64,000 nt of DNA from positions 176,561,574-176,625,573 of the forward strand of contig NC_085841.1 of assembly GCF_035594765.1 (NCBI RefSeq), written 5' to 3'. This stretch comes from Anolis carolinensis. Its lineage: Eukaryota. Numbering within the stretch: the stretch's first letter is position 1; the number at the start of each line of letters is the position of its first letter. Shown piece after piece: positions 19,334 to 48,748 of the stretch. The notes below the pieces were generated by a model that saw only the letters and a program-made list of their open reading frames with translations, had not been told where the DNA came from and did not search any database. Made by a program: the position numbers and the translations under genes.

Positions 19334-20441
19334 CAGTAGAGTCTCACTTATCCAACATAAACGGGCCGGCAGAACGTTGGATAAGCGAATATGTTGGATA
19401 ATAAGGAGGGTTTAAGGAAAAGCCTATTAAATGTCAAATTACATTATGGTTTTACAAATTAAGCACCAAAACATCCTGTTTGAAATACAAAACCCCTGGA
19501 AGCTGGGAACACACTGATATACTGTAGATTAATCATCTCTAGAATCCCATATTGAGCAGAGCAATGGCAACACTGGGAAACAAAAATTTGCTAAATATTT
19601 GATATTGGTCAACTGTCTCCAGAATCTCACCTGGAGCTGGGTGGCTCTGTGTTGGGAGGAGGGCTTGGCTTGTGCCTTCCAGCCTGGCAGAATGGGGCTG
19701 GGCTGGAGAGCCTCTGAAGGGAGGAGGGGGTCTCTTGTGTTTCTAGGGTGCTATGCCTCTAAAGATTCTTGCTTGGGTTAAAAGAGGAGGAGGAAGCCAG
19801 AAGTGCAAGTTGCTGCAGGGCTGACAGGGGTAAAAGAGGGGGAAGAGGGAGGAGGAGGAGAAGGAAGAGAGAGTGCGTGGGGGAGAAAAAGGAAGGAGAG
19901 GGGGGGGGGATCTGGAGCAAAATGTGTGTGTGTGTGTGCAGGAGGAAAGGGGGGTCCTCCGCTCACCCACCCAGGTAAGGAGATGACAGAAGGCAGGCAG
20001 CCCCCGCCCCACTCGCCAGCCCTGACTTGGCCTTGCCTGCGGCCCTTTCCCAAGCCCGGGCCCTCTGCTTTGGCTTCTCTCCCTCCCCATTCTTTCCTTC
20101 CAATCACGAGCCATTGATTTGGAAACAAGGCCGGCTTGGAGCCTGCACCAAGAGAAAGAGGGAGGGAGAGCCATGCGTTTCCTTTTTTCCCCCTCCTCCC
20201 TCCCTCCCCTCCCTCCCTCCCTCCCTCGCATATAAATGGCCCCCCATGGAATTATTCACCCCCCTTCCCTCCCTTCTCTTCCGAGATGCGCTTTCATCCT
20301 TCCAGTTTTTTCGAAAGGGAAAGAGCCACAGCTCTCACCTTGGATTGAGTGAAGGATGCAATGTTTCCAATTGACCACTAGATGGCGTCGGATAATACGG
20401 AGTGTCGGATAAGCGGAAGTCGGATAAGTGAGACTCTACTG
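19334..20441 (+). mobile_element. Long (1108 bp) variant of the Tc1/Mariner MITE with a GC-rich interior
   Basis: TIRs cagtagagtctcacttatcc / ggataagtgagactctactg with TA TSD; the first ~150 bp match the short copies. Confidence 0.85.
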
Positions 20442-20613: not shown

Positions 20614-21586
20614 TGTGATGACTCATGGGCCTTGTAGTCCTGCTTATGACACTGTAATGCCTGATGATGAAGAAAACTTGGGTTTTTTACCTTCCCAGTC
20701 TGAACTGGAATCTTCCCAGCCAGATCTTTCCCAGGCAGATCTGGGAACCTTGCACCTGCAAGAGAGTTGTGACCCAGAAGTATGTCAAACAAATCCGGAG
20801 CCCACTTCCCCTGTGTTCTCCCGCCATGAGTTTTGTAAACAACAGAGAAGTTTGGAAGCTGCTTCGCGCAGGAGTGCGAGGATAGCAGCCAAGAATTCAG
20901 CCAATTAAGTCTGCTTTTTCGTGAGAATCCTTAAGGAGGCAAACATCTGGTCTCAAAGATTAGCTTTCGTTTCTGGTTCCCAGAGAACTGCTTCGGCGGG
21001 AAAGTTAGACTCTATATAGGTGATTTACCCGCGAAGTAACTTCGCGGAGTCAATTCGTCAACCTCCGGAGCGAGTTGTGTCTGGACAGCGCGCTCCGTTT
21101 CAAGCCTCGCTCCTGCTCAAGCCTTGCCCTGCTTTTCAGCCTTCGCTCCTGTTTCTGCCTTGTTTACCTACGGACCTTGCTTGTTTCCCGGGACTAAACA
21201 TTGCCTTGTATCACGGATTTTACCAAGTTTTTTCCACGGACCTTGTTCTTGTTCCTTGTTACCTTGTTCCACGTTTTAAGCCTTGTTTCAAGTATCAAGT
21301 TATTTCCTAGCCTTGCTCAAGTTTATGGACTAAAGGACCTTGTCATCTCCCCTCACTTTGCCTGGCAAAGTGAGTGTTTCGGTTATTGGATTACAACTTT
21401 GAACCTTAATATTTCATATTGGACATCGCTTTTTTGAACTAATTTAGACCTTTCCTGAAAGGTCTGCTTTTGGACTATTTCATATACTTGCTTTTATTAA
21501 CTTTATATATTCCTTCAATAAAGATATTAGATAGATTCTGGCCTCTGTGTTTGGTTATTGGTGCCTTTGCAGCCTGGGTCCTGACA
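20614..21586 (+). repeat. 5' LTR (TATA ~21013, AATAAA 21517-21522)
   Basis: TGTGA...TGACA termini; direct repeat of 26062-27034. Confidence 0.97.
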
Positions 21587-21588
21587 GT

Positions 21589-21598
21589 TTGACTCCGC
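21589..21598 (+). promoter_or_regulatory. Self-priming primer-binding site
   Basis: TTGACTCCGC, 2 nt after the LTR end, is the exact reverse complement of GCGGAGTCAA (21044-21053), 31 nt downstream of the TATA box; no TGG-type tRNA PBS is present. Confidence 0.85.
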
Positions 21599-21629
21599 CA
21601 CCCATAAGCACCAATTAACCAAGGCCAGA

Positions 21630-22616
21630 ATGTCGACCGGAGCCGCGCCGGCTGGGCAGCCGCTCAGCTACACCATCAGCAAAGATGAAGTGGATCGCAT
21701 CCGTGACAGACTCAACGCGCAGGATGGAGAAATAAAAGGATTGAGGGAGCGCGGAGTCCGCCTCCCGGCCATGGCGTTGCCAACCAAGTTTTCTGGAGAA
21801 GCTTCCAAGGTCCAAGTTTTCCGCCGCCAGTGCCAGGCTTACCTAGAGGCCCGTGCCGCCGAGTTTCCCCAAGAAGACATCAAGGTGGCGTGGGTTTACA
21901 GCCTTCTAGACGGACCAGCGGCCAGCTGGGCGACGGCCCTATTCGATCAAGCCTCTTCCCACCTAAGAACAGCGCAACGCTTCTTGGATCACCTTAAGGA
22001 GACCTGGGGAATCGAGGACAATTTGGAGGCAGCCGGCCATAAACTCCGGCGCCTCTTTCAAGGAGACAGACCCATGTCTCAGTACATAGCTGAGTTCCGA
22101 GTGCTGGCCCACAGCACCGGCTGGAACGATGTAGCCCTCAGGGGACAATTTCGGGAGGGTCTCAACATTGAAATGCTGGAAGAAATCTCCAAGGTGGACC
22201 CTCCCCAGTCCCTCGAAGCACTCATTGACCAATGTTTACGGGCTGAAGTCTTGATTGCCAACAGGAAACAATGGGTACGTGGTCAGAGCGGTAGAGCCGG
22301 GGCAAAACCCCCCGCTCCCGCCAGCGTCCAGCCGCGTCCAGTGTGGAGACCCCCACCACCAACCCCATACCCCAGAGGGAGCGAGGAGGTGCCGATGCAG
22401 TTGGGCAACGTGCGACCCAGGTTAGATGCCGCCGAGAAGGCCCGTCGCCAACGCTTAAATCTCTGCTGGTATTGCGGAAATGGGGGCCACTTCGCCAGAG
22501 AGTGTCCAGCCAAAGGGAAGCCCGCCGCCCGTCTTGCGGCGGCGTCCTCCACGGAGACGAAGGCGTCTGAGGCGGCTGGCACACAGCCGGCGGGGGAAGC
22601 CAACGACCGGGCGTAG
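21630..22616 (+). CDS. gag: Gag (capsid plus CCHC zinc knuckle), 328 aa
   Basis: LPTKFSGE, QGDRPMSQYIAEFR (MHR-like), VPMQLG and CWYCGNGGHFAREC; sushi/PEG10-like architecture. Confidence 0.95.
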   Translation: MSTGAAPAGQPLSYTISKDEVDRIRDRLNAQDGEIKGLRERGVRLPAMALPTKFSGEASKVQVFRRQCQAYLEARAAEFPQEDIKVAWVYSLLDGPAASWATALFDQASSHLRTAQRFLDHLKETWGIEDNLEAAGHKLRRLFQGDRPMSQYIAEFRVLAHSTGWNDVALRGQFREGLNIEMLEEISKVDPPQSLEALIDQCLRAEVLIANRKQWVRGQSGRAGAKPPAPASVQPRPVWRPPPPTPYPRGSEEVPMQLGNVRPRLDAAEKARRQRLNLCWYCGNGGHFARECPAKGKPAARLAAASSTETKASEAAGTQPAGEANDRA

Positions 22617-25600
22617 AGAGGCTCGCCAACCCGGTCAAAAAAACCATTCAAGAGCCGCCAACCGGGGTCCTGTTCCTTCTAGTGGTCACCTTATGGTCAG
22701 CAAAAAGGGGACCCGTCATGATCCACGCCATGATAGACTCCGGAGCCACCAACAACTTCATTGACAGAGAGTATGCCGACTCTCTGGGATTACAATATCA
22801 TGACTTCAAGAATGCCCGTGTGGTGCAAGCCATAGACGGCCGCCCCCTCAAGACGGGGCCCGTAAGCCAGTGGTCAGAACCCACCAGGATGTGGATAAGG
22901 GAACATATGGAAGAGATTTCTTTCTTTGTTACCGAGGTTCCCCATTTCCCTGTGATTTTGGGAATCCCGTGGCTGACTCTCCACGACCCAAGCATCTCCT
23001 GGTCCAACAGAGAACTACAGTTTGCTTCAAAGTACTGCCAAAACCATTGCCTCGTAGCCAAGGTCTGCCATGCCACAGAGACCGAGCCCATCATCACCCT
23101 GCCCAAGAAGTACTCCGAGTATTGGGATGTATTCAATGAAAAAGAAGCCGAGAAATTACCCCCACATAGACCTTATGACTGTGCCATTGACTTGGTGGAG
23201 GGGGCCCCGATCCCGCGAGGGCACCTATACTCCCTGACTGAACCGGAGCAAGAAGCTCTCAGGGAATTCATAGAGACAAACCTTCGCAAGGGATTCATCA
23301 GACCCTCTCAATCCCCAGCCGCCTCCCCAGTGATGTTTGTGAAGAAGAAGTCAGGGGAATTACGCTTGGTGGTGGACTACAGAGCATTGAACAATATCAC
23401 CAAGCGGAACAGTTATCCCCTGCCCTTAATCTCGGATCTACTGGACCGACTTCGAGGAGCCAAGGTCTACACCAAGCTGGATCTTCGAGGGGCTTATAAT
23501 CTAGTTCGCATCAGAGAAGGGGACGAGTGGAAGACTGCCTTTCAGACTAAATTCGGATTATTCGAGTCCCGAGTTATGAATTATGGATTATGCGGAGCCC
23601 CCGCAACGTTCCAGCATTTTGTCAATGATATTTTTCAGGACTATCTAGATCGGTTCTTGATAATCTACCTGGACGATTTTTTGGTGTTTTCTAGATCACA
23701 ATCAGAACATGAGAACCACGTCAAAATGGTGTTACAACGTTTGCGAGATCATGGACTTTATGCCAAGTTGGAAAAATGCGCTTTCGATCTACAAGAGGTA
23801 GATTTCCTTGGTTACCGTATCTCGCCTCTAGGGCTCTCCATGGATCCAGCCAAGGTTTCAGCAGTATTGGAGTGGCGGGCGCCAACTAACAAGAAAGAGG
23901 TGCAACGTTTCTTGGGGTTCGCGAACTATTACCGCAAGTTCATTCCAGATTTTGCCCGCTGGTCTGACCCAATCACTAGCTGCATCCGTGGAAAACAGCC
24001 CTTCCGCTGGACTGATCAAGCAGAGAAAGGGTTCCAGCAATTAAAGAAATTATTCACGTCCCAGCCAATTCTACAGCACCCAGATCCTGGAACCCCTTTT
24101 GTTGTGCAAGCGGACGCCTCGGACGTGGCAATTGGGGCTGTACTCTTACAACCGGTGGGAGACCACCTTCATCCCTGTGCCTTTTACTCCCGTCAACTAA
24201 CCACACCAGAGAGAAATTACACCATTTGGGAAAAGGAACTACTGGCCATAAAGGCAGCCTTTGAAACTTGGAGACATTGGCTAGAAGGGGCCAAATTTCC
24301 CATTGAAGTCCACACTGATCATCGAAATCTAGAACATCTAAGAACTGCCCGCAAACTAAATCAGAGGCAGCAACGTTGGGCTTTATTCTTTGAACGTTTC
24401 AACTTCCAGATCCATTATGTGACCCCAGCCCAAACCAAGCAAGCAGACGCCCTGTCACGTAAACCGGAATACGCTGCAGGACGCAAGGAGACCTTTGAAT
24501 CCCAACTACTACAACCCGAGAACTTTGCCACGCTCACAGTGGGGAACACCAAATCCACTCCCATTGGTTCAACTTCCTCTACTCCAGGACCCATCTGTGC
24601 TCAAGAAATCAGGGCCAGTCAGCAAGCAGATGCCTGGGCGCAGGACCAACTTCGTCAAGGTCTGCATTTTCCCTTTTCGCTTAAAGATGGACTGCTTTGC
24701 TATAGAAATCATGTTTATATCCCACCCGGACCGGGCAGGGAAAAAGCGCTTCGTCTGTGTCATGACTGCAAACCAGCAGGGCATTTCGGACTATTTAAAA
24801 CCATGCATCTGATCCTAAGGGATTTTTGGTGGCCCAAGATCCGCAAAGATGTGGAAAAATATGTCAACACCTGCCCAGTATGCCAGCGCTCCAAGATAAG
24901 AAGGGAGAAACCCTCGGGGCTTCTACATCCCCTTCCTACCCCATCTCGCCCATGGGAAATAATTTCTGCGGATTTCATCACTGACCTACCACCTTCCTGT
25001 GGATTCACCACGATCCTAGTGGTGGTGGACCTTTTCACCAAGTTAGCCCATTTCATACCCTGTGAAGGTCTCCCCACGGCCAAAGAGACTGCAGATCTAT
25101 TCCTTCAACATGTTTTCAGACTACATGGATTGCCCAAGAGTTTAGTCACAGACCGTGGATCTCAATTCACCTCTCGTTTTTGGAAGGCACTACAGAAACT
25201 ATTGGGCATAGACTCTCGCTTATCTTCAGCTCATCATCCTCAAACAGATGGGCAAACGGAGCGCACCAATGCCACCTTGGAGCAGTATCTTCGCTGTTAT
25301 GTAAACTACCAACAGGACAATTGGGCTTCTCTGTTACCACTGTCAGAGTTTGCTTATAACAATGGAGTTCAAGCTTCTACAAAAGAAACGCCGTTCTTTG
25401 CAAACTACGGCTTCCACCCACGTTTCTTTCCCCCTGTCATTGAAACTTCAGAAGTTCCCGCAGCAGAGGATTGGCTGCAGGAACTCACAGCGGTACAACA
25501 ACTTTTGCTCCAGCAACTGGACCAAGCCAAGGAGGACTATAAACGCCACGCTGACAAACATCGCCAGCCGGGCCCCGAAATCAAGGTAGGAGATCGGGTT

Positions 25601-26356
25601 TTCCTGTCCACTCGCTTTCTGCCCTCCCACCGCCCTTGCCGGAAGTTAGATGCCCGTTTCATTGGCCCTTATCCAGTGGTGGCGCAATTAAACCCCGTGA
25701 CTTTCAAACTCCAACTTCCGCGTTCAATGCGCATCCACCCAGTGTTTCACCGTTCCCTGCTCCTTCCGGCGGATGGTGTGCGTCCTGATACAGACCAACC
25801 GGCTCCCCCTCCTGTTTTGATGAATGGGGAGGAGGAGTTCGAGGTTGAGGACATTTTAGATTCTCGCTTTCACCGCCGCCGCCTGCAATATCTCATTGAC
25901 TGGGTGGGTTTTGGCCCTGAGGAGCGCTCTTGGGAAGACGCCTCCACAGTTCACGCTCCTGATCTAACCCGTCGCTTTCATCAGACCTATCCCACCAAAC
26001 CGCGGCCTCGCGCTTCGGGGAGAGAGTCCCAGTTTGGGAGGGGCCCTGAGGAGGGGGATAGTGTGATGACTCATGGGCCTTGTAGTCCTGCTTATGACAC
26101 TGTAATGCCTGATGATGAAGAAAACTTGGGTTTTTTACCTTCCCAGTCTGAACTGGAATCTTCCCAGCCAGATCTTTCCCAGGCAGATCTGGGAACCTTG
26201 CACCTGCAAGAGAGTTGTGACCCAGAAGTATGTCAAACAAATCCGGAGCCCACTTCCCCTGTGTTCTCCCGCCATGAGTTTTGTAAACAACAGAGAAGTT
26301 TGGAAGCTGCTTCGCGCAGGAGTGCGAGGATAGCAGCCAAGAATTCAGCCAATTAA
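22571..26356 (+). CDS. pol: Pol (PR-RT-RNaseH-IN-chromodomain plus LTR-encoded tail), in the -1 frame relative to gag
   Basis: Frame open from 22571 (after TGA at 22568-22570). Motifs: DSGA protease, YLDD RT, DASD RNase H, H-x6-H...CPVC zinc finger, D-D-E core (SADF/TDRG/ERTN), GPYP, chromodomain EEFEVEDILDSR...YLIDWVGF...SWE; the stop codon lies inside the 3' LTR. Confidence 0.95.
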   Translation, partial: GGWHTAGGGSQRPGVERLANPVKKTIQEPPTGVLFLLVVTLWSAKRGPVMIHAMIDSGATNNFIDREYADSLGLQYHDFKNARVVQAIDGRPLKTGPVSQWSEPTRMWIREHMEEISFFVTEVPHFPVILGIPWLTLHDPSISWSNRELQFASKYCQNHCLVAKVCHATETEPIITLPKKYSEYWDVFNEKEAEKLPPHRPYDCAIDLVEGAPIPRGHLYSLTEPEQEALREFIETNLRKGFIRPSQSPAASPVMFVKKKSGELRLVVDYRALNNITKRNSYPLPLISDLLDRLRGAKVYTKLDLRGAYNLVRIREGDEWKTAFQTKFGLFESRVMNYGLCGAPATFQHFVNDIFQDYLDRFLIIYLDDFLVFSRSQSEHENHVKMVLQRLRDHGLYAKLEKCAFDLQEVDFLGYRISPLGLSMDPAKVSAVLEWRAPTNKKEVQRFLGFANYYRKFIPDFARWSDPITSCIRGKQPFRWTDQAEKGFQQLKKLFTSQPILQHPDPGTPFVVQADASDVAIGAVLLQPVGDHLHPCAFYSRQLTTPERNYTIWEKELLAIKAAFETWRHWLEGAKFPIEVHTDHRNLEHLRTARKLNQRQQRWALFFERFNFQIHYVTPAQTKQADALSRKPEYAAGRKETFESQLLQPENFATLTVGNTKSTPIGSTSSTPGPICAQEIRASQQADAWAQDQLRQGLHFPFSLKDGLLCYRNHVYIPPGPGREKALRLCHDCKPAGHFGLFKTMHLILRDFWWPKIRKDVEKYVNTCPVCQRSKIRREKPSGLLHPLPTPSRPWEIISADFITDLPPSCGFTTILVVVDLFTKLAHFIPCEGLPTAKETADLFLQHVFRLHGLPKSLVTDRGSQFTSRFWKALQKLLGIDSRLSSAHHPQTDGQTERTNATLEQYLRCYVNYQQDNWASLLPLSEFAYNNGVQASTKETPFFANYGFHPRFFPPVIETSEVPAAEDWLQELTAVQQLLLQQLDQAKEDYKRHADKHRQPGPEIKVGDRVFLSTRFLPSHRPCRKLDARFIGPYPVVAQLNPVTFKLQLPRSMRIHPVFHRSLLLPADGVRPDTDQPAPPPVLMNGEEEFEVEDILDSRFHRRRLQYLIDWVGFGPEERSWEDASTVHAPDLTRRFHQTYPTKPRPRASGRESQFGRGPEEGDSVMTHGPCSPAYDTVMPDDEENLGFLPSQSELESSQPDLSQADLGTLHLQESCDPEVCQTNPEPTSPVFSRHEFCKQQRSLEAASRRSARIAAKNSAN
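26048..26061 (+). promoter_or_regulatory. Polypurine tract
   Basis: GAGGAGGGGGATAG directly before the 3' LTR. Confidence 0.9.
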
Positions 26357-27034
26357 GTCTGCTTTTTCGTGAGAATCCTTAAGGAGGCAAACATCTGGTC
26401 TCAAAGATTAGCTTTCGTTTCTGGTTCCCAGAGAACTGCTTCGGCGGGAAAGTTAGACTCTATATAGGTGATTTACCCGCGAAGTAACTTCGCGGAGTCA
26501 ATTCGTCAACCTCCGGAGCGAGTTGTGTCTGGACAGCGCGCTCCGTTTCAAGCCTCGCTCCTGCTCAAGCCTTGCCCTGCTTTTCAGCCTTCGCTCCTGT
26601 TTCTGCCTTGTTTACCTACGGACCTTGCTTGTTTCCCGGGACTAAACATTGCCTTGTATCACGGATTTTACCAAGTTTTTTCCACGGACCTTGTTCTTGT
26701 TCCTTGTTACCTTGTTCCACGTTTTAAGCCTTGTTTCAAGTATCAAGTTATTTCCTAGCCTTGCTCAAGTTTATGGACTAAAGGACCTTGTCATCTCCCC
26801 TCACTTTGCCTGGCAAAGTGAGTGTTTCGGTTATTGGATTACAACTTTGAACCTTAATATTTCATATTGGACATCGCTTTTTTGAACTAATTTAGACCTT
26901 TCCTGAAAGGTCTGCTTTTGGACTATTTCATATACTTGCTTTTATTAACTTTATATATTCCTTCAATAAAGATATTAGATAGATTCTGGCCTCTGTGTTT
27001 GGTTATTGGTGCCTTTGCAGCCTGGGTCCTGACA
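26062..27034 (+). repeat. 3' LTR
   Basis: 973-bp direct repeat of the 5' LTR, followed by TSD GGAGC. Confidence 0.97.
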
Positions 27035-38814: not shown

Positions 38815-40420
38815 TGTTCATTCAAGTAGTCATCTGTGAAATTTGCACAAATACAGAAGCAATGGCAATGTTGACGTGATAGAGATCTGCTGCTGCTGCT
38901 CTGATGGGAAGAGCGGATCCTCCACTGACACTGGCGGCTTTTCAGTAGGAAAGTTGAGAGCACGTGCCAAGCAAAGTATCAAATGTGGAAAAGTTTTCAG
39001 TCATCCACGAGCATGGGGCCCAGATCAACCTTCAGCTCATGAGGGTCCTCAATGCCACATGAGGAGTCCGAATCCTTCGTTAGGGGCGCAGCTGTAGTGG
39101 TGGACAAAGGTAGTGCCACCCTGCGCTGAGCAGAATCCTGGAGGGGCAGCTGGTCATAATCTGGCAGTAAAGGAGGGATGTGCTGCCTATGATCATCTTG
39201 GGCATGAGGCCCAAAATAATAGGAGTGCCCACCAGGCGAGTGAGGGCAGAAATCCTGCTGTGGGATATACAAAGGTAGCTCCTGCTGCTTGTGTATTGGG
39301 GGGATCAGAAGGTAGGCTGGTGTTTGTGCTAGAGGGAGGTGGCTCCTTGATCCCAAGGAGTCCAACACAATCAACAAGTGTCGGTCCCACAGCAGGACTG
39401 CTTGAAGAGGGCTTGATGAGGGTGACCAGTGCCTGACAGGGTGGGGAGGTCCATGCCTGCATCGCCCGCAGGTGAGCGGCCTCCCTGAGGGGCATGGGCG
39501 GCAGCGATGGCTGGCCCTGGAGGACCTCTACAGCTGCCTGCCTTGGTGCCTACATCGGCCGCACAAGGGCTGTGGCCTGCGCTTCTGCTGAGGGCAGGAA
39601 TGCGGAAGCATTCGACACCTCCAGCAGAGAAAAGCCTCCCTGCTGCCTTGCCATCTCTCCCGTCAACAGAGGCGCTGGGGAGGAGGGCCGGCTTGGTTAC
39701 GCTGCAGCAAGGGGAGGCGTAGGAGTGTATCCAGAGACCGCCGGAGGCTTTTTCTTCCTTCCTTGCTTTTGCCTCCTTTTGAGCTGCTCTGGTCCTTGGT
39801 GCTGTATTACAACCTGGAGTGTTTAGCCACAGCTGGCTGCACCACAGCTGACAAAGAGGCCATGCCTGAAGGTAATGGTGTTTGGTTGTCCACAACTGGG
39901 TGGGCTCTAAGGTGACCCGCATCCTGGAGCTTGGAATAGTGGGAAGGATGGCCTGCTCATACAGCATGGCCTTAAGACACTGGTCCAGATTCTTCCTTGT
40001 CTGGGATGTAAAAGATCAACACACTTCACAAGAGCTCACAATATGCCTTTCACCCAAACAGACCAAATATATATCATATCCATCAACGTCTAGTAACTTA
40101 GTACCACAAGATGCACATTTTTAAAGCAATGAGTAGACATCTCTTGCCTGAGTAGTACACAATCTGGATCAAAACCATAGTATCAAAGGAGTATCCAAAG
40201 AGTAGACAATCTGTAGGTCAACACAATAGCTACTCAGTAGTAAGAGATTCTTCTGCTGGCTGCTGAGGCAGTGGAAAAAACTGAGGCTACAACCCATTAC
40301 CCTGCATTATATCATCTGGGGAGTGTGGGCAGGGTTATAGCCGTAAAGCTAGAAAGCTTTCCAGAAGATTCAGAGACTTGCTGTGCAGGTGCAGAAATTG
40401 GAAATCATAAGATATTTTTG
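38815..40420 (-). mobile_element. DIRS1-like tyrosine-recombinase retrotransposon remnant (gag pseudogene, internally deleted)
   Basis: From ATG at 40140 (minus): MSTHCFK/KCASCGTKLLDVDGYDIYLVCLGERHIVSSCEVC*SFTSQTRKNLDQCLKAMLYEQAI, matching the vertebrate DIRS gag N-terminal Cys/His finger; later LARALNFP..DPLF; DIRS-like terminus gtcatctgtgaa near 38830. Confidence 0.75.
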
Positions 40421-43400: not shown

Positions 43401-43669
43401 CATTATATATACTCGTGTGTAATTCAAAAAGAATGCCACCAAATGCCTGGATTGATTTATACACAGGTCAGGGCTGGAATAGCGACCCAGTGCAAAGGCA
43501 GAGGCCTTCATTACCCCCCCCCCCCCCATGCCTAACCCACAAGAAGAAAGGCAGCTCCCCCTTTCTCACCTTGCTTTTCAAGCCAAATGGCAATAATTTT
43601 TAATAGGGGTATATTGTCAGCCTTATTGAAAATGGCTACCACAGTCTCTCTGCAGAGAAACTTCTACAG

Positions 43670-43796
43670 CAGTGGTTTCCAACCTTTGGGCCTCCAGGTG
43701 TTTTGGACTTCAACTTCCAGAAATCCCAGCCAGCTTACCAGCTGTCAGGAGTTGTGGGAGCTAAAGTCCAAAACATCTGGAGGCTGGGAACCACTG
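43670..43796. mobile_element. Short hAT MITE (127 bp)
   Basis: TIRs cagtggtttccaacc / ggctgggaaccactg; perfect 8-bp TSD TTCTACAG. Confidence 0.9.
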
Positions 43797-44654
43797 TTCT
43801 ACAGGAAGTCATTATTAAAATGGCTGCCAGCACTCCACCTCAAGCACCCAAATGGCATGTGTCACCATCCTCAGGTTGTCATGAACTCATCTGGTGTGTT
43901 CACAACATCAGAACTCCTCAATGCCATGAGTTCACAGCCAAGGTCAGTGAATGAAAATAGAATAAAAACATCTGCATGGGAAAGACCTTAATAAAATGAA
44001 CTGGCTCAGACTGAAAGACCTGGTGGCTGTATGGAGGAACTTTGGGAGTTCAGGGGGTAAGGCTTTCGGGGATATTAAACGGAGAAGTTGCCCATGTTTC
44101 TTCATTTGTAACTTTGCTGTATATTAGTAACCTAGCATTAAAGACATTTCCAAGATTCCTTGTGAGTGAATTTAATTGCTAACAAGTTTCTGCAATCATC
44201 ACACAGGTGCCCCCATGTTGCTGTTGAACACCTTTCTTTCTGTGGGCAGAGGGAGATGTAATGAGGTGAGAGCATGTCTTGCCTCTGCCTCTTATCCTTT
44301 CCTTGTTTTTCTAACCTGCTTTTTAATGATGCATTTCCATTCTTTTCTTCATTTGTATTCTTTTCTCTATCTGTATTTCTATAGATGTAAACATCCTAAA
44401 GTCAGCAATGCAATTTGCACCCCATTGTAACCTATCAAATAAAGTAGCTTCCCTCTGTGCATTTTTCCAACGAGAAAATATTTCTTTGTTACCTGCTCCA
44501 AAATGTTTTATGCTCGACTTACCCATATATCAAAGTTAAATCCATAATTTTGGTCCCAAAACCTGTCCTCGACTTATACAAGAGATGGGCTTATATACAA
44601 GTATGAGTCCCTTTGGGAAGATAGGGCGTGATATAAATAAAATTTTATTATTAT

Positions 44655-44692
<38 letters not shown>

Positions 44693-47385
44693 TATACAAT
44701 AATTTTACTAATTCCATTTTCAAGCATGACTGTTGATGGCCTTTGTCCATCACTTGATCAGAATCCATGTCTTTTATTTCTATTGTAAAGCCTAATAACC
44801 TAGTATTTTTCATATATCATCTGAAATCAGAACGGCAAAGATGCACAGGTAACTATTTTGTCTCAAGTTTGGAAATCAGCATGTTGTTGATTCAAATGTT
44901 GACCACACAGTTCAATTACCTTCTGTAGTGCCGAGAAACACTCCTGGTCTCTTCACCATGGTTTGTGGGTTAGGACTAGTCCATGGAATTACACACTCCC
45001 AACCTCTCACATACATTCTGCTCTTGCCAGCTTAATCAGAATTGTAGCCATACCAATCCTGGCATGACTGATTACAATATGTAACCATAATTAAAGGAAT
45101 GGGCCATGTTAGTTAATGGGTAACGGTGGTCAAAACTGGCCTGAATATCCAAAACATCTTTGCCATCTTATTTGATAGGAGTTACTAAATGTCGTCTCCA
45201 TTAAATCATCTGCCTTTGCTTTTCACAGCACCCAATCCAAGTCCAGTTTCAAAAGCATAATTGCTTCACCTCTCATTATTGTCACATGGCTATACAGACA
45301 TGCTATCTTTAGTCATTTCACTAATTAAATTACATCAAATTACAGCAAACTGGGGATATGGTATGACAGCAATATGGATTAGCAAATTATGCTTTTTTTG
45401 CCCATAAGAAGACATTAAACTGTGCTTGCTGATATTAAATACTCTTTTAGACACATCCCTTTAGCGACCATTTAAATTTAACACAGCACAAAAGATCAGA
45501 GCAAGCAGTATAACAATGTTAGTCACCATCAACAAACATGAAGACCGTGATGTGAGATGGAAATAATATTGGCTACTCTGACCAGAAGAAAAAATAATAC
45601 ACTGATGGAATACATGGTGAACAAAAGCAAACACTACTCTTGCAGATTAATGACACGTCACACTAATTCCAAGAGGCTGAAATCATAAATGAAGAGTAGA
45701 ACACAGTAATTACTCCACTGCCTTATCAAAAGGAATTAGCTTTATTCTACGAACATTGAGAGTATCTATTTTGATAAGCATACAATATTACCCAGTAGCA
45801 GACACCAAACGCACATTCCATTTTCCTTCCAGCCATTCATGGCACATGATAGGAATCTAAGAAAAACACAGCTGCCGTTCTGTTAACATGGTTGCCAGCC
45901 AGATGCCTCTGGGCAGCCCACACTCAAGACATGAGCAAAACTCTGGCCTGCAAAATCTGCACTGTGAAATGACCATACGCCAATGACCTCACCAGTCCAC
46001 CTGATTATCATTATGTGCACAACACCTGTGCTTTCTTTAAAACTACGCCTGGCCAAGTTCCCTTCTGCTTAGAGGCTTTTAAAATTGAATGTTGATTTTA
46101 AAAGCAGAAATGTTTATGACACACTGTCCCCATAACATTGGTGAAGCATTTTTCCACTGAACTTCTAGAAGACATTCTAATACTTCATTACCTTCCATTT
46201 TTAGTTTATTTGCAAATTCAAATTGGATACTTTTCAGTAATATTTACAAATACCAATTCCTGGTTTTACATTCTCTTAATATGTTCCTGTATTCTCCAGC
46301 AAAACAAGAGCTGCTGAAGTCCCCAAGGCTGATGGTCCACAGACAGACAATAAAAATTACAGTAATCGTCCACATTTTAACATAGACCAAAAAATTACAG
46401 TGAAATCATGTTTGTGTGTGTCCATACACACACATGCAAATACACATATATGCACAGCCATGGCACATAATCTTCTAGCAATAGCACAGAAGAATCTATG
46501 CTCGGCATCCTTCACCAATCATAGGTATTCGAAATGTTTTAAGGATCATAAAAACATGTTAAAAATGTATACTGGTTGTATAGGAATCTGGGCATTCTAA
46601 ATCCAAAAATTATTTTAGCTTTGCTCTATCACATATATCCTTCCCCCCCCCCCCCCCCCATCTACTTTGATGTTTCTATCTTGTAATATGTGACTGGGTA
46701 AGATTTCTCTGGGAAATAAAAAATAAACAGAAAGAAAGTAGAAAGCTTTTAGTAGAAAGCTTTAATTCACTGATATGAAAAACAAAATTCATTCAAAAGC
46801 ACTAGAAATCACACTGGAACATCAGACTCCACACATAATTAAAACTGAATTGATGAAAATACTGAATTTGTTAAAGAGCTGTCTGTGGTACGGCATTTTT
46901 ATTGTGTTTTTCTTATTTAGCACCCCAAAATACATTAACAGCAGCTACAGCAGATTCTTTGTGCATGGTCTGTCAGGGCTTTGATCTGCGAACCTCACCT
47001 CCTCCAAGGTGAACAAAACCACCTAAACTGGGCTCTACAGGACAATGGATACTCCACCACAGACATCAGAAGAGCTGCAAGGCCAAGAACAAGCCATGAG
47101 AGTCAAGACAAAGATCCACCCAGAGGAAAGGTGTTCTTACCATACATCAAGGGAACCACTGACCGCATAGGCAAACTGATGAAGAAGCACAACCTACAAA
47201 CTATCTACAGACCCACAAAGAAAATCCAACAAATGCTATGGTCAGCGAAGGACAAGAGGGATCCTCTCTCCTCTGCAGGAGTCTACTGGATACCATGCAG
47301 CTGTGGACAAGTATACATAGGGACCACCAAACACAGCGCCCAAACACAAATCAAAGAACATGAAAGACACTGCAGACTAACTCAA

Positions 47386-48298
47386 TGTGATGATTCATGG
47401 GCCATGTAGTCCCGTTCCTAGTGCTGTTGTGACAGATGAAGAGGAAAACTTGGGTTTTCCACCATTTCAGCCAGAAAAGGAACTATCCCAGCCAGAAATG
47501 GAGCCTTTGCACCTGCAGGAGGTTTGTCTTCCAGAAATCTGCCAAACAAGCCCTGAGTCAAAGTCTCCCCCTTTTTCTCGCCGTAATTATTATCTCCAGC
47601 AAAAAGGAGTGCAACAGGCTAATCGCAGGAGCTTGAGAATTGCAGCAAAGCATTCAGATGATTAAGCCTGCTTCCATGAGAAATTTTAGGGAGTGATACA
47701 TCTGGACACAGAGATTGACTTTCGTTTCTGGTTCCCCAGAGAAGTGTTCTCTGGTGGGGAAACGAGGCCCTATTTAGGTTCCTTGCTCCCGAAGGAATCT
47801 TGCGGAGTCAATTCGTCAGCTACCGGAGCAGCGTGTGTGGACAGCTACTCCTGCTCCCAAGCCTTGTTCCTGTTCCAAGCCTTCGTTCCCAGCCTTGTTT
47901 TCTCCCCGGATCTTGCCTTGTTTCCCGGACCTTGCCAAGTAATTACCACGGATCTTGTTCTTGCTCCTCGTTTCCTTGTTGCCTTGAATCAAGCCTTGTG
48001 TTCCAAGAATCAAGTTATTTCCTAGCCCTGCTCAAGTTCATGGACTAAAGGACCTTGTCATCTCCCCTCACTTGCTTGGCAAGTGAGTGTTTCGGTTATT
48101 GGATTACAACTTTGGACCTTAATATTTCATATTGGACCTTGCTTCTTTGGACTAATTTTGACCTTTCCTGAAAGGTCTACTTCTGGACTATTTCCTATAC
48201 TTGTTTTTATTAACTTTATATATTTCCTTAATAAAGATATTAGATAGATTCTGGCCTCTGTGTATGGTTATTGGTGCTCTGCAGCCTGGGTCCTGACA
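47386..48298 (+). mobile_element. Solo LTR related to the 20614 chromovirus, 913 bp
   Basis: TGTGA...TGACA termini, TSD CTCAA, clear homology to 20614-21586. Confidence 0.95.
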
Positions 48299-48748
48299 CT
48301 CAACCAGAGAAATCAGCCATAGCAGAGCACTTGATGAACCAACCTGGACACAGTATATTATTTGAGAACACAGGAATGCTTGGCCACTCCAACAACTATC
48401 ATGTCAGACTACACAGAGAAGCCATTGAAATCCACAAGCATGTGGACAACTTCAACAGAAAGGAGGAAACCATGAAAATGAACAAAATCTGGCTACCAGT
48501 ATTAAAAAACTCAAAAATCATAACAGTAGATGGGAAGCAGCACTCTGAGGGCAGAGGAGCTCCAGGGATGACTAATGACTCTGAACAAAGGATGCTCCCC
48601 AGGCAAGAGACAAACCTTTCCAATGCTAATTAGAGTGATTAACTGCAACATTCACGCAACATTCCAACTCACAAAGAACTCTTCTCACACCCTGGACTTC
48701 CACAGATATATATTAACCTCCCTTGCCTAGTTTCTCCATGCCTCACAA

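Follow-up and report, generated by a model that had tools for sequence, protein, structure and literature searches.

The 64,000-nucleotide stretch of Anolis carolinensis DNA that we analyzed (the window) contains two members of one retrotransposon family, an intact element and a solo LTR (Table 1). The solo LTR is a single complete LTR between two copies of a 5-bp TSD (CTCAA, at 47381-47385 and 48299-48303), and no internal region is present nearby. It is 74.6% identical to the LTR of the intact element by blastn, and there is no further piece of the family within the 64-kb window. The solo LTR was inserted in an older non-LTR element (46939-47385 and 48299-48530); the left frame of this element ends with ...HERHCRLTQ and the right one resumes with PEKSAIAEH across the TSD. 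We take these flanks to resemble the RT/GIY-YIG end of a Penelope-like element; a Pfam search of the flanks of the solo LTR gave no match. Other stop-to-stop frames of 150-214 aa are at 19743-20255, 38997-40015 (minus strand), and 43536-43991, and no tRNA genes were found within the 64-kb window.

Table 1. Features of the intact element and the solo LTR in the window.
Feature	Coordinates	Strand	Description
Ty3/gypsy chromovirus, Tf1/sushi type, intact	20614..27034	+	two identical 973-bp LTRs; TSD GGAGC
Primer-binding site, self-priming type	21589..21598	+	10-nt complement to LTR nt 431-440
gag	21630..22616	+	DUF4939, Retrotrans_gag, zf-CCHC (profile domains)
pol, -1 relative to gag	22571..26356	+	PR, RT, RNase H, integrase, SH3, chromodomain; through PPT into 3' LTR
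LTR-encoded integrase tail, Pol aa 1165-1261	26063..26356	+	acidic low-confidence linker, then predicted helix
RRSARIAAK motif, Pol aa 1249-1257	26315..26341	+	7/8 to Dot5 RRSARIAT, 6/8 to HMGN RRSARLSA
Solo LTR, 913 bp	47386..48298	+	TG...CA ends; sister subfamily of the window's Ty3/gypsy chromovirus
Solo U3 frame, 92-aa copy of integrase C-terminal tail without upstream pol	47387..47665	+	88/92 to Pol-fused tails
RRSLRIAAK motif of solo, HMGN/Dot5-like	47624..47650	+	8/9 residues equal to those of the intact element
Solo TATA-like box (47771) and self-primer-like GCGGAGTCAA (47802-47811)	47771..47811	+	inferred U3/R border

The intact element is a Ty3/gypsy chromovirus and belongs to the Tf1/sushi group by its structure. 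Its LTRs have TG...CA ends, it is flanked by a TSD, and gag is followed by PR-RT-RH-IN. With sushi-ichi, MAGGY, and Tf1 it shares a CCHC gag, the -1 overlap of gag and pol, the order PR-RT-RH-IN, a C-terminal chromodomain, a primer-binding site (PBS) of the self-priming type, AATAAA near the LTR's 3' end, and a 5-bp TSD. The chromodomain (PF00385, Pol residues 1090-1138, E 3e-09) is at the C-terminal end of the integrase, and its aromatic cage positions (F1090, W1111, and F1114) are all aromatic, as in the residues by which group I chromodomains are defined (PMC3605345). The PBS complements the inferred 5' end of the transcript, as expected for self-priming in the Tf1/sushi group (10.1101/2022.12.06.519325). 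The complement is 31 nt behind the TATA box (LTR nt 400) and is also kept in the solo LTR; by chance, a complement of at least 9 nt was found for 2.8% of random 20-mers. The AATAAA at LTR nt 904 agrees in position with that of sushi LTRs (PMC3601003). The insertion is very recent, since its two LTRs show no difference in 973 bp and neither gag nor pol is interrupted.

The open frame in U3 encodes the last 97 residues of the integrase, after the chromodomain, and is not a separate LTR gene. The pol frame has no stop and terminates 295 nt inside the 3' LTR; by reading on past the PPT into the 3' LTR, pol thus has its tail encoded in U3. Given that the PBS complement is at LTR nt 431-440, the frame is wholly within U3. 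It is upstream of the start site inferred at nt ~431 and is therefore likely to be silent in a 5' or solo LTR. The original prediction had proposed that the frame might be a targeting module. A targeting role is plausible, but the place of the frame as the C-terminus of Pol was missed.

The tail, 85-97 aa long, forms an acidic linker that changes fast and varies in length without loss of frame, but a few blocks in it are fixed. Its C-terminal third is basic, with 7 K/R within the last 32-37 aa. It belongs to no family in Pfam, and the sole match in a PDB sequence search was to a designed repeat protein (E 0.089). A search of 1.84 billion proteins gave four matches: the LTR frame is part of three of them, all Anolis gene models, and the fourth is repetitive and chance-like. 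Atlas searches gave chromodomain clusters or no match. AlphaFold2, run on the single sequence, gave a poor model (mean pLDDT 51, with the chromodomain not in its expected fold) that placed the terminal motif within a helix at residues ~1234-1260 (pLDDT ~70-76).

The frame in the solo LTR has the form that had been described from the sequence. It begins at LTR nt 2, contains 92 codons and a TAA, and differs from that of the intact LTR by a single 15-nt in-frame gap. An amino acid identity of 55-60% had been estimated, and we found 53/92 (58%) relative to the frame of the intact element. The blocks HGPCSP, EENLGF, LHLQE, FSR, and RRSxRIAAK, which had been listed as retained, are all present. The ratio of observed to expected CpG was 0.27-0.29 in the two U3 frames (26063-26356 and 47387-47665), 0.63 in pol, and 0.41-0.73 in the remaining LTR.

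The solo LTR is not a decayed relic. The top database matches of the element were UniRef proteins labelled Anolis carolinensis, in clusters of 366, 94, 33, and 9 members, with at most 15 members per cluster among the matches listed; these proteins are gene models and are biased towards open frames. Among the matches listed, 63 proteins were of the Anolis type: 35 had pol-fused tails of at least 80 aa, three ended soon after the junction, and 25 were without the junction. Eight of 35 tails among these matches shared 90% or more of their residues with the solo frame, which matched the tails of P0062 (a full-length Pol), P0081, and P0095 at 88/92 residues. Upstream of the LTR, 384/400 residues of P0062 are the same as in the intact element in the window, and Pol proteins with a solo-like tail have integrases that are 95-96% identical to that of the intact element. 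The description "diverged solo LTR" was therefore misleading: the solo LTR differs from the intact copy and yet is nearly the same as the tails of Pol proteins from a sister subfamily. Based on these results, we have very high confidence that the frame is a Pol tail and that the solo LTR is young and from a sister subfamily, and we attribute the open state of the solo frame to the likely youth of this copy. The tails are 85, 86, 91, 92, or 97 aa long, and the length variants are in frame. Not every member of the clade needs the tail, given that P0006, a sister model from Anolis, stops short of the LTR. In six Anolis host gene models (P0041, P0042, P0075, P0085, P0118, and P0119), pieces of pol or of the U3 frame of the family are fused to host sequence; these fusions are likely annotation artefacts.

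The frame has been under purifying selection at the level of the protein. The solo and intact frames differ at 27, 23, and 40 of 92 first, second, and third codon positions. By NG86, dN was 0.32 and dS about 1.0, giving a dN/dS of 0.31 with a bootstrap interval of 0.16-0.55, and none of the usable replicates reached 1. An open frame by itself is weak evidence of selection: when an equal number of substitutions was placed at random in neutral simulations, 7% of the frames stayed open. We also compared contigs of four sequencing runs with positions 25400-27034 at 80% likeness, a comparison that does not detect long indels or those subfamilies that have diverged most. Among 15 of the 31 rows from these contigs, there were no joints with splice-like ends. 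Among the small indels listed there were 11 at 10 places, each of 1-2 nt and all in the non-coding LTR, and none in the frame or in pol (avoidance of the frame, p = 0.027 by places and 0.16 by five clusters, for U3 alone). In the pairwise alignment of the solo and intact LTRs, 8/10 non-coding gaps were not multiples of three. In these checks, frameshifting indels were not as common in the U3 frame as in the non-coding LTR; had they been, this would have spoken against the original prediction.

Because the frame is the in-frame C-terminus of Pol, it was in full-length elements, and not in the solo LTR, that selection took place. The proposal that selection maintains the frame is thus correct for the protein, where both dN/dS and the indels indicate purifying selection, but not for the solo LTR itself. 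Nothing that we tested points to the suggested host conflict; dN/dS is well below 1, and the comparison of solo and intact frames gave no sign of diversifying selection.

The tail evolves much faster than the rest of the integrase, as had been suggested for a linker. Between subfamilies, identity was 60% in the tail versus 96% in the integrase; the integrase core differs at ~4-18 of 280 residues, and the two halves of the tail at up to 18/48 and 30/49. Other LTR elements also have a U3 that varies from subfamily to subfamily. The non-coding LTR downstream of the stop has 114 differences in 628 columns. The estimate of about 90% identity for R/U5 holds for the last 309 columns (92%), but not for all of the non-coding LTR past the stop (82%), and the 319 columns that precede the last 309 are 72% identical, about like the coding part (69%). 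Divergence was 31% in the frame and 28% in the non-coding part from the stop to column 680. The best single step is at LTR nt ~665, with a divergence of 30% to the left and 8% to the right (maximum chi-square 55.8, reached in 0/300 permutations). This step is in the inferred R, at about 26726 in the intact element and about 47991 in the solo LTR, and a breakpoint near the TATA box is rejected.

The step at nt ~665 reflects either recombination or a strong RNA-level constraint on the last ~310 nt. The tails of P0063 and P0065 are mosaic, with a first half of the solo type and a second half like that of P0060; in a test of triplets that were hand-picked after viewing the alignment, 3/9 gave p<0.01 and 6/9 were not significant. 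Together, the mosaic tails and the step in R make template-switch recombination likely, although constraint on the LTR's 3' end could also give the step. Of the proposed swapping of U3 cassettes, then, the recombination is likely from the mosaic tails and the position at the TATA box does not hold.

The tail ends in a short motif that is conserved in the family. We compared 35 distinct tails (34 fused to Pol, from the matches listed, and the solo). RRS[AL]RIAA[KR] was present in 31/35 and RRSxR in 32/35 of these listed tails, compared to 0.2% in shuffles, and each of the four exceptions was a single gene model. The S, R, I, A, and A of the motif were invariant in all 35 listed tails, and the windows directly upstream of the motif had a mean pairwise identity of 0.46-0.63. 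Within Anolis, conservation of the motif was 0.85, versus 0.86-0.92 for the blocks VMxHGPCSP, DEEENLGF, and LHLQ. Four of the eight motif codons shared by the solo and intact frames differ synonymously; the same comparison gave differences at 1/6 codons of EENLGF and 1/5 codons of LHLQE.

Arginine anchors are used by foamy virus Gag and herpesvirus LANA. The terminal motif of the Anolis tails resembles those of HMGN proteins and Dot5: the first eight residues of the intact motif match as given in Table 1, and those of the solo motif (RRSLRIAA) match Dot5 at 6/8 and HMGN at 5/8. The HMGN motif RRSARLSA binds nucleosomes, and RRSAR of HMGN2 and RRSSR of Dsup are reported on the acidic patch by cryo-EM (PMC12487698). 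Yeast Dot5 is described as binding the acidic patch through RRSARIAT, with a requirement for R6, R7, and R10 (PMC13347269). The three arginine positions needed in Dot5 are those kept in the Anolis motif, and arginines at positions 1, 2, and 5 are present in 32/35 listed Anolis tails and in P0127 of Podarcis (see below). In about 15/35 listed tails, including the solo, an L occupies the position of the A in HMGN and Dot5.

The RRSxR core is common to HMGN, Dsup, Dot5, and the Anolis tails, but the Anolis copy is at the end of a retrotransposon integrase, where nucleosome binding is a prediction. The motifs of HMGN and Dsup are modelled as short segments straddling H2A alpha-2, whereas the Anolis motif is in a predicted helix. 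A complex prediction with the last 40 residues of the tail and an animal-type H2A-H2B from a metagenome locus, run without controls, gave a median score of 0.02 (single runs 0.85, 0.02, and 0.01). AlphaFold 3 is reported to fail on HMGN2 as well (PMC12487698).

A second lizard lineage has the motif. The closest relative outside of Anolis is P0127 of Podarcis muralis, which is from a cluster of 15 and 53% identical over Pol. In a rapidly built tree of 36 selected rows, comprising vertebrate, fungal, and unnamed chromodomain-bearing relatives and leaving out the named references sushi-ichi, Tf1, and MAGGY, P0127 grouped with Anolis and Rhineura (SH-aLRT 99); the Rhineura model ends too early to show presence or absence of the motif. 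P0127 has the GD[SG]-VM junction found in Anolis, followed by an acidic tail of 117 aa in which PRRSARLKAR is at position 96, and from the protein pattern this tail, too, is probably LTR-encoded. It is 34% identical to the Anolis tail, over 50 aa only, and its motif matches that of HMGN at 7/8. RRS[AL]R[LI]xA occurred in 4/200,000 shuffles of the P0127 tail, and RRSxR[IL] had no occurrence in 157,877 residues of Pol preceding the chromodomain. Outside of Anolis, the specific pattern was found in 1/160 proteins (P0127), and the looser RR[ST]xR in 2/103 tails following the chromodomain, with 2.9 expected from shuffles.

Other relatives end differently. Many are almost tailless and end within 25 aa of the chromodomain. 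Fish relatives (P0013, P0016, P0017, P0020, P0031, P0197, P0212, and others) carry an RGRP run resembling an AT-hook behind the chromodomain, and their short tails close with a conserved RxxSP[DE][YF] just before the stop. This is apparently a second, different LTR-encoded motif, with pol reading into the LTR. As judged from these sequences, the HMGN-like motif is a real, specific, and testable lead that is backed by two lizard lineages.

Extension of Pol into the LTR has precedents, and the Anolis element differs from each of them. Compared to the Tf1/sushi group, the Anolis Pol continues past the chromodomain for 97 aa into the 3' LTR and has an HMGN-like end, and the fish relatives apparently run in less far. 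Pol of the plant CRM group A elements, and of some Reina elements, is reported to extend into the 3' LTR with a targeting motif (PMC3059260, PMC3605345). In CRM group A the CR motif replaces the chromodomain; the Anolis element has a true chromodomain before the PPT and carries the motif encoded in the LTR as an extra. The likeness is one of architecture only, between elements of plant hosts and one of an animal host that is known from sequence. We considered membership in CRM group A and rejected it: the chromodomain is present, and the nearest relatives are squamate, other vertebrate, or fungal elements. [quoted passage not shown] The MLV and Ty1 motifs bind host adaptor proteins, whereas the Anolis motif would contact the histone surface directly.

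The HMGN-like motif is the new part of these findings; the retention of an open frame in a solo LTR is explained and ordinary, and the extension of Pol into the LTR was already known. We found no literature that links a retrotransposon integrase to an HMGN-like acidic-patch motif in a search that left most subscription journals outside its scope, and no publication titled on the Anolis family in one that did not extend to subscription journals and Repbase entries. In one retrovirus review, the term acidic patch refers to integrase itself (PMC5053271). A 2025 structure paper presents Dsup as the sole non-vertebrate protein then known to have HMGN-like nucleosome binding, with more predicted (PMC12487698), and Dot5 followed as a further HMGN-like binder (PMC13347269). 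The partner of the plant CR motif was reported as unidentified in 2011 (PMC3059260).

The terminal motif could serve the integrase in some other way. It might be a basic motif for nuclear import, for non-specific binding of DNA or RNA, or for phosphorylation by a kinase, or part of an oligomerization helix, with a likeness to HMGN that is usual for short arginine-rich motifs. The helix predicted over the motif, the seven K/R near the end of the tail, the equal conservation of further tail blocks, and NLS-like motifs reported in this region of plant chromovirus integrases (PMC3605345) are all consistent with such a role. However, the 7/8 match is to Dot5, whose acidic-patch motif has been tested, plain charge would not require the invariant S, I, A, and A, and Podarcis has independently kept the motif, with the L of the HMGN type, in a tail that is otherwise so different. 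We therefore regard another role as a serious possibility, but an unlikely one.

It is improbable that the tail is simply tolerated read-through, in which stops and frameshifts would be mildly harmful or rare and the blocks would be DNA elements of U3, such as the att site or enhancer sites. The first block does overlap the end of the LTR that integrase needs, few codons of EENLGF and LHLQE have changed (1/6 and 1/5), and many relatives stop no more than 25 aa past the chromodomain. These observations have to be set against a dN/dS of 0.31 with an interval below 1, synonymous changes in half of the motif codons, length variants that all remain in frame, the absence of common small indels from the frame (0/10 places, with the p values given above), and the presence of the same motif in Podarcis. 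Retroviral genes that overlap U3 exist, and the frame might encode a separate small accessory protein that starts at the ATG at LTR nt 5 and functions in host conflict. Its transcript would be spliced or read-in, and solo LTRs could be a source as well. There is an M at position 2 in 35/35 listed tails, VM opens the Podarcis tail, and the host gene models P0075 and P0119 run into the frame. But the frame is continuous with pol and upstream of both the TATA box and the inferred start site, the ATG is within the LTR terminus TGTGATG and so is constrained as DNA, most fish relatives are without M at that position, and dN/dS indicates no diversifying selection. An accessory protein is thus very hard to credit.

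Taking all of this together, we lean modestly towards the reading in which the frame is an integrase tail, the solo LTR is young, and the terminal motif would be an anchor of the HMGN/Dot5 type on the acidic patch of H2A-H2B. Reverse transcription would copy U3 to both ends of the element, and recombination between LTRs would leave solo LTRs that carry an orphan frame. If the tail stays on the mature integrase, the chromodomain cage would read a methylated tail of H3 and the acidic patch would be within reach of the flexible integrase tail, resulting in a two-point capture of the nucleosome or, alternatively, keeping the integration complex on chromatin. Template switching between co-packaged RNAs of different subfamilies may reshuffle the tail halves and the 3' ends of the LTR. 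The more general proposal, that squamate chromoviruses have an LTR-encoded, HMGN-type integrase anchor for two-point reading of nucleosomes and trade the tail as a recombining cassette, is tentative, and we would put it at slightly below an even chance. If true, the anchor would explain a dual constraint on the U3 of this family, as promoter and as protein, and the integrase motif would provide a direct and cheaply testable model for the role of LTR-encoded integrase tails.
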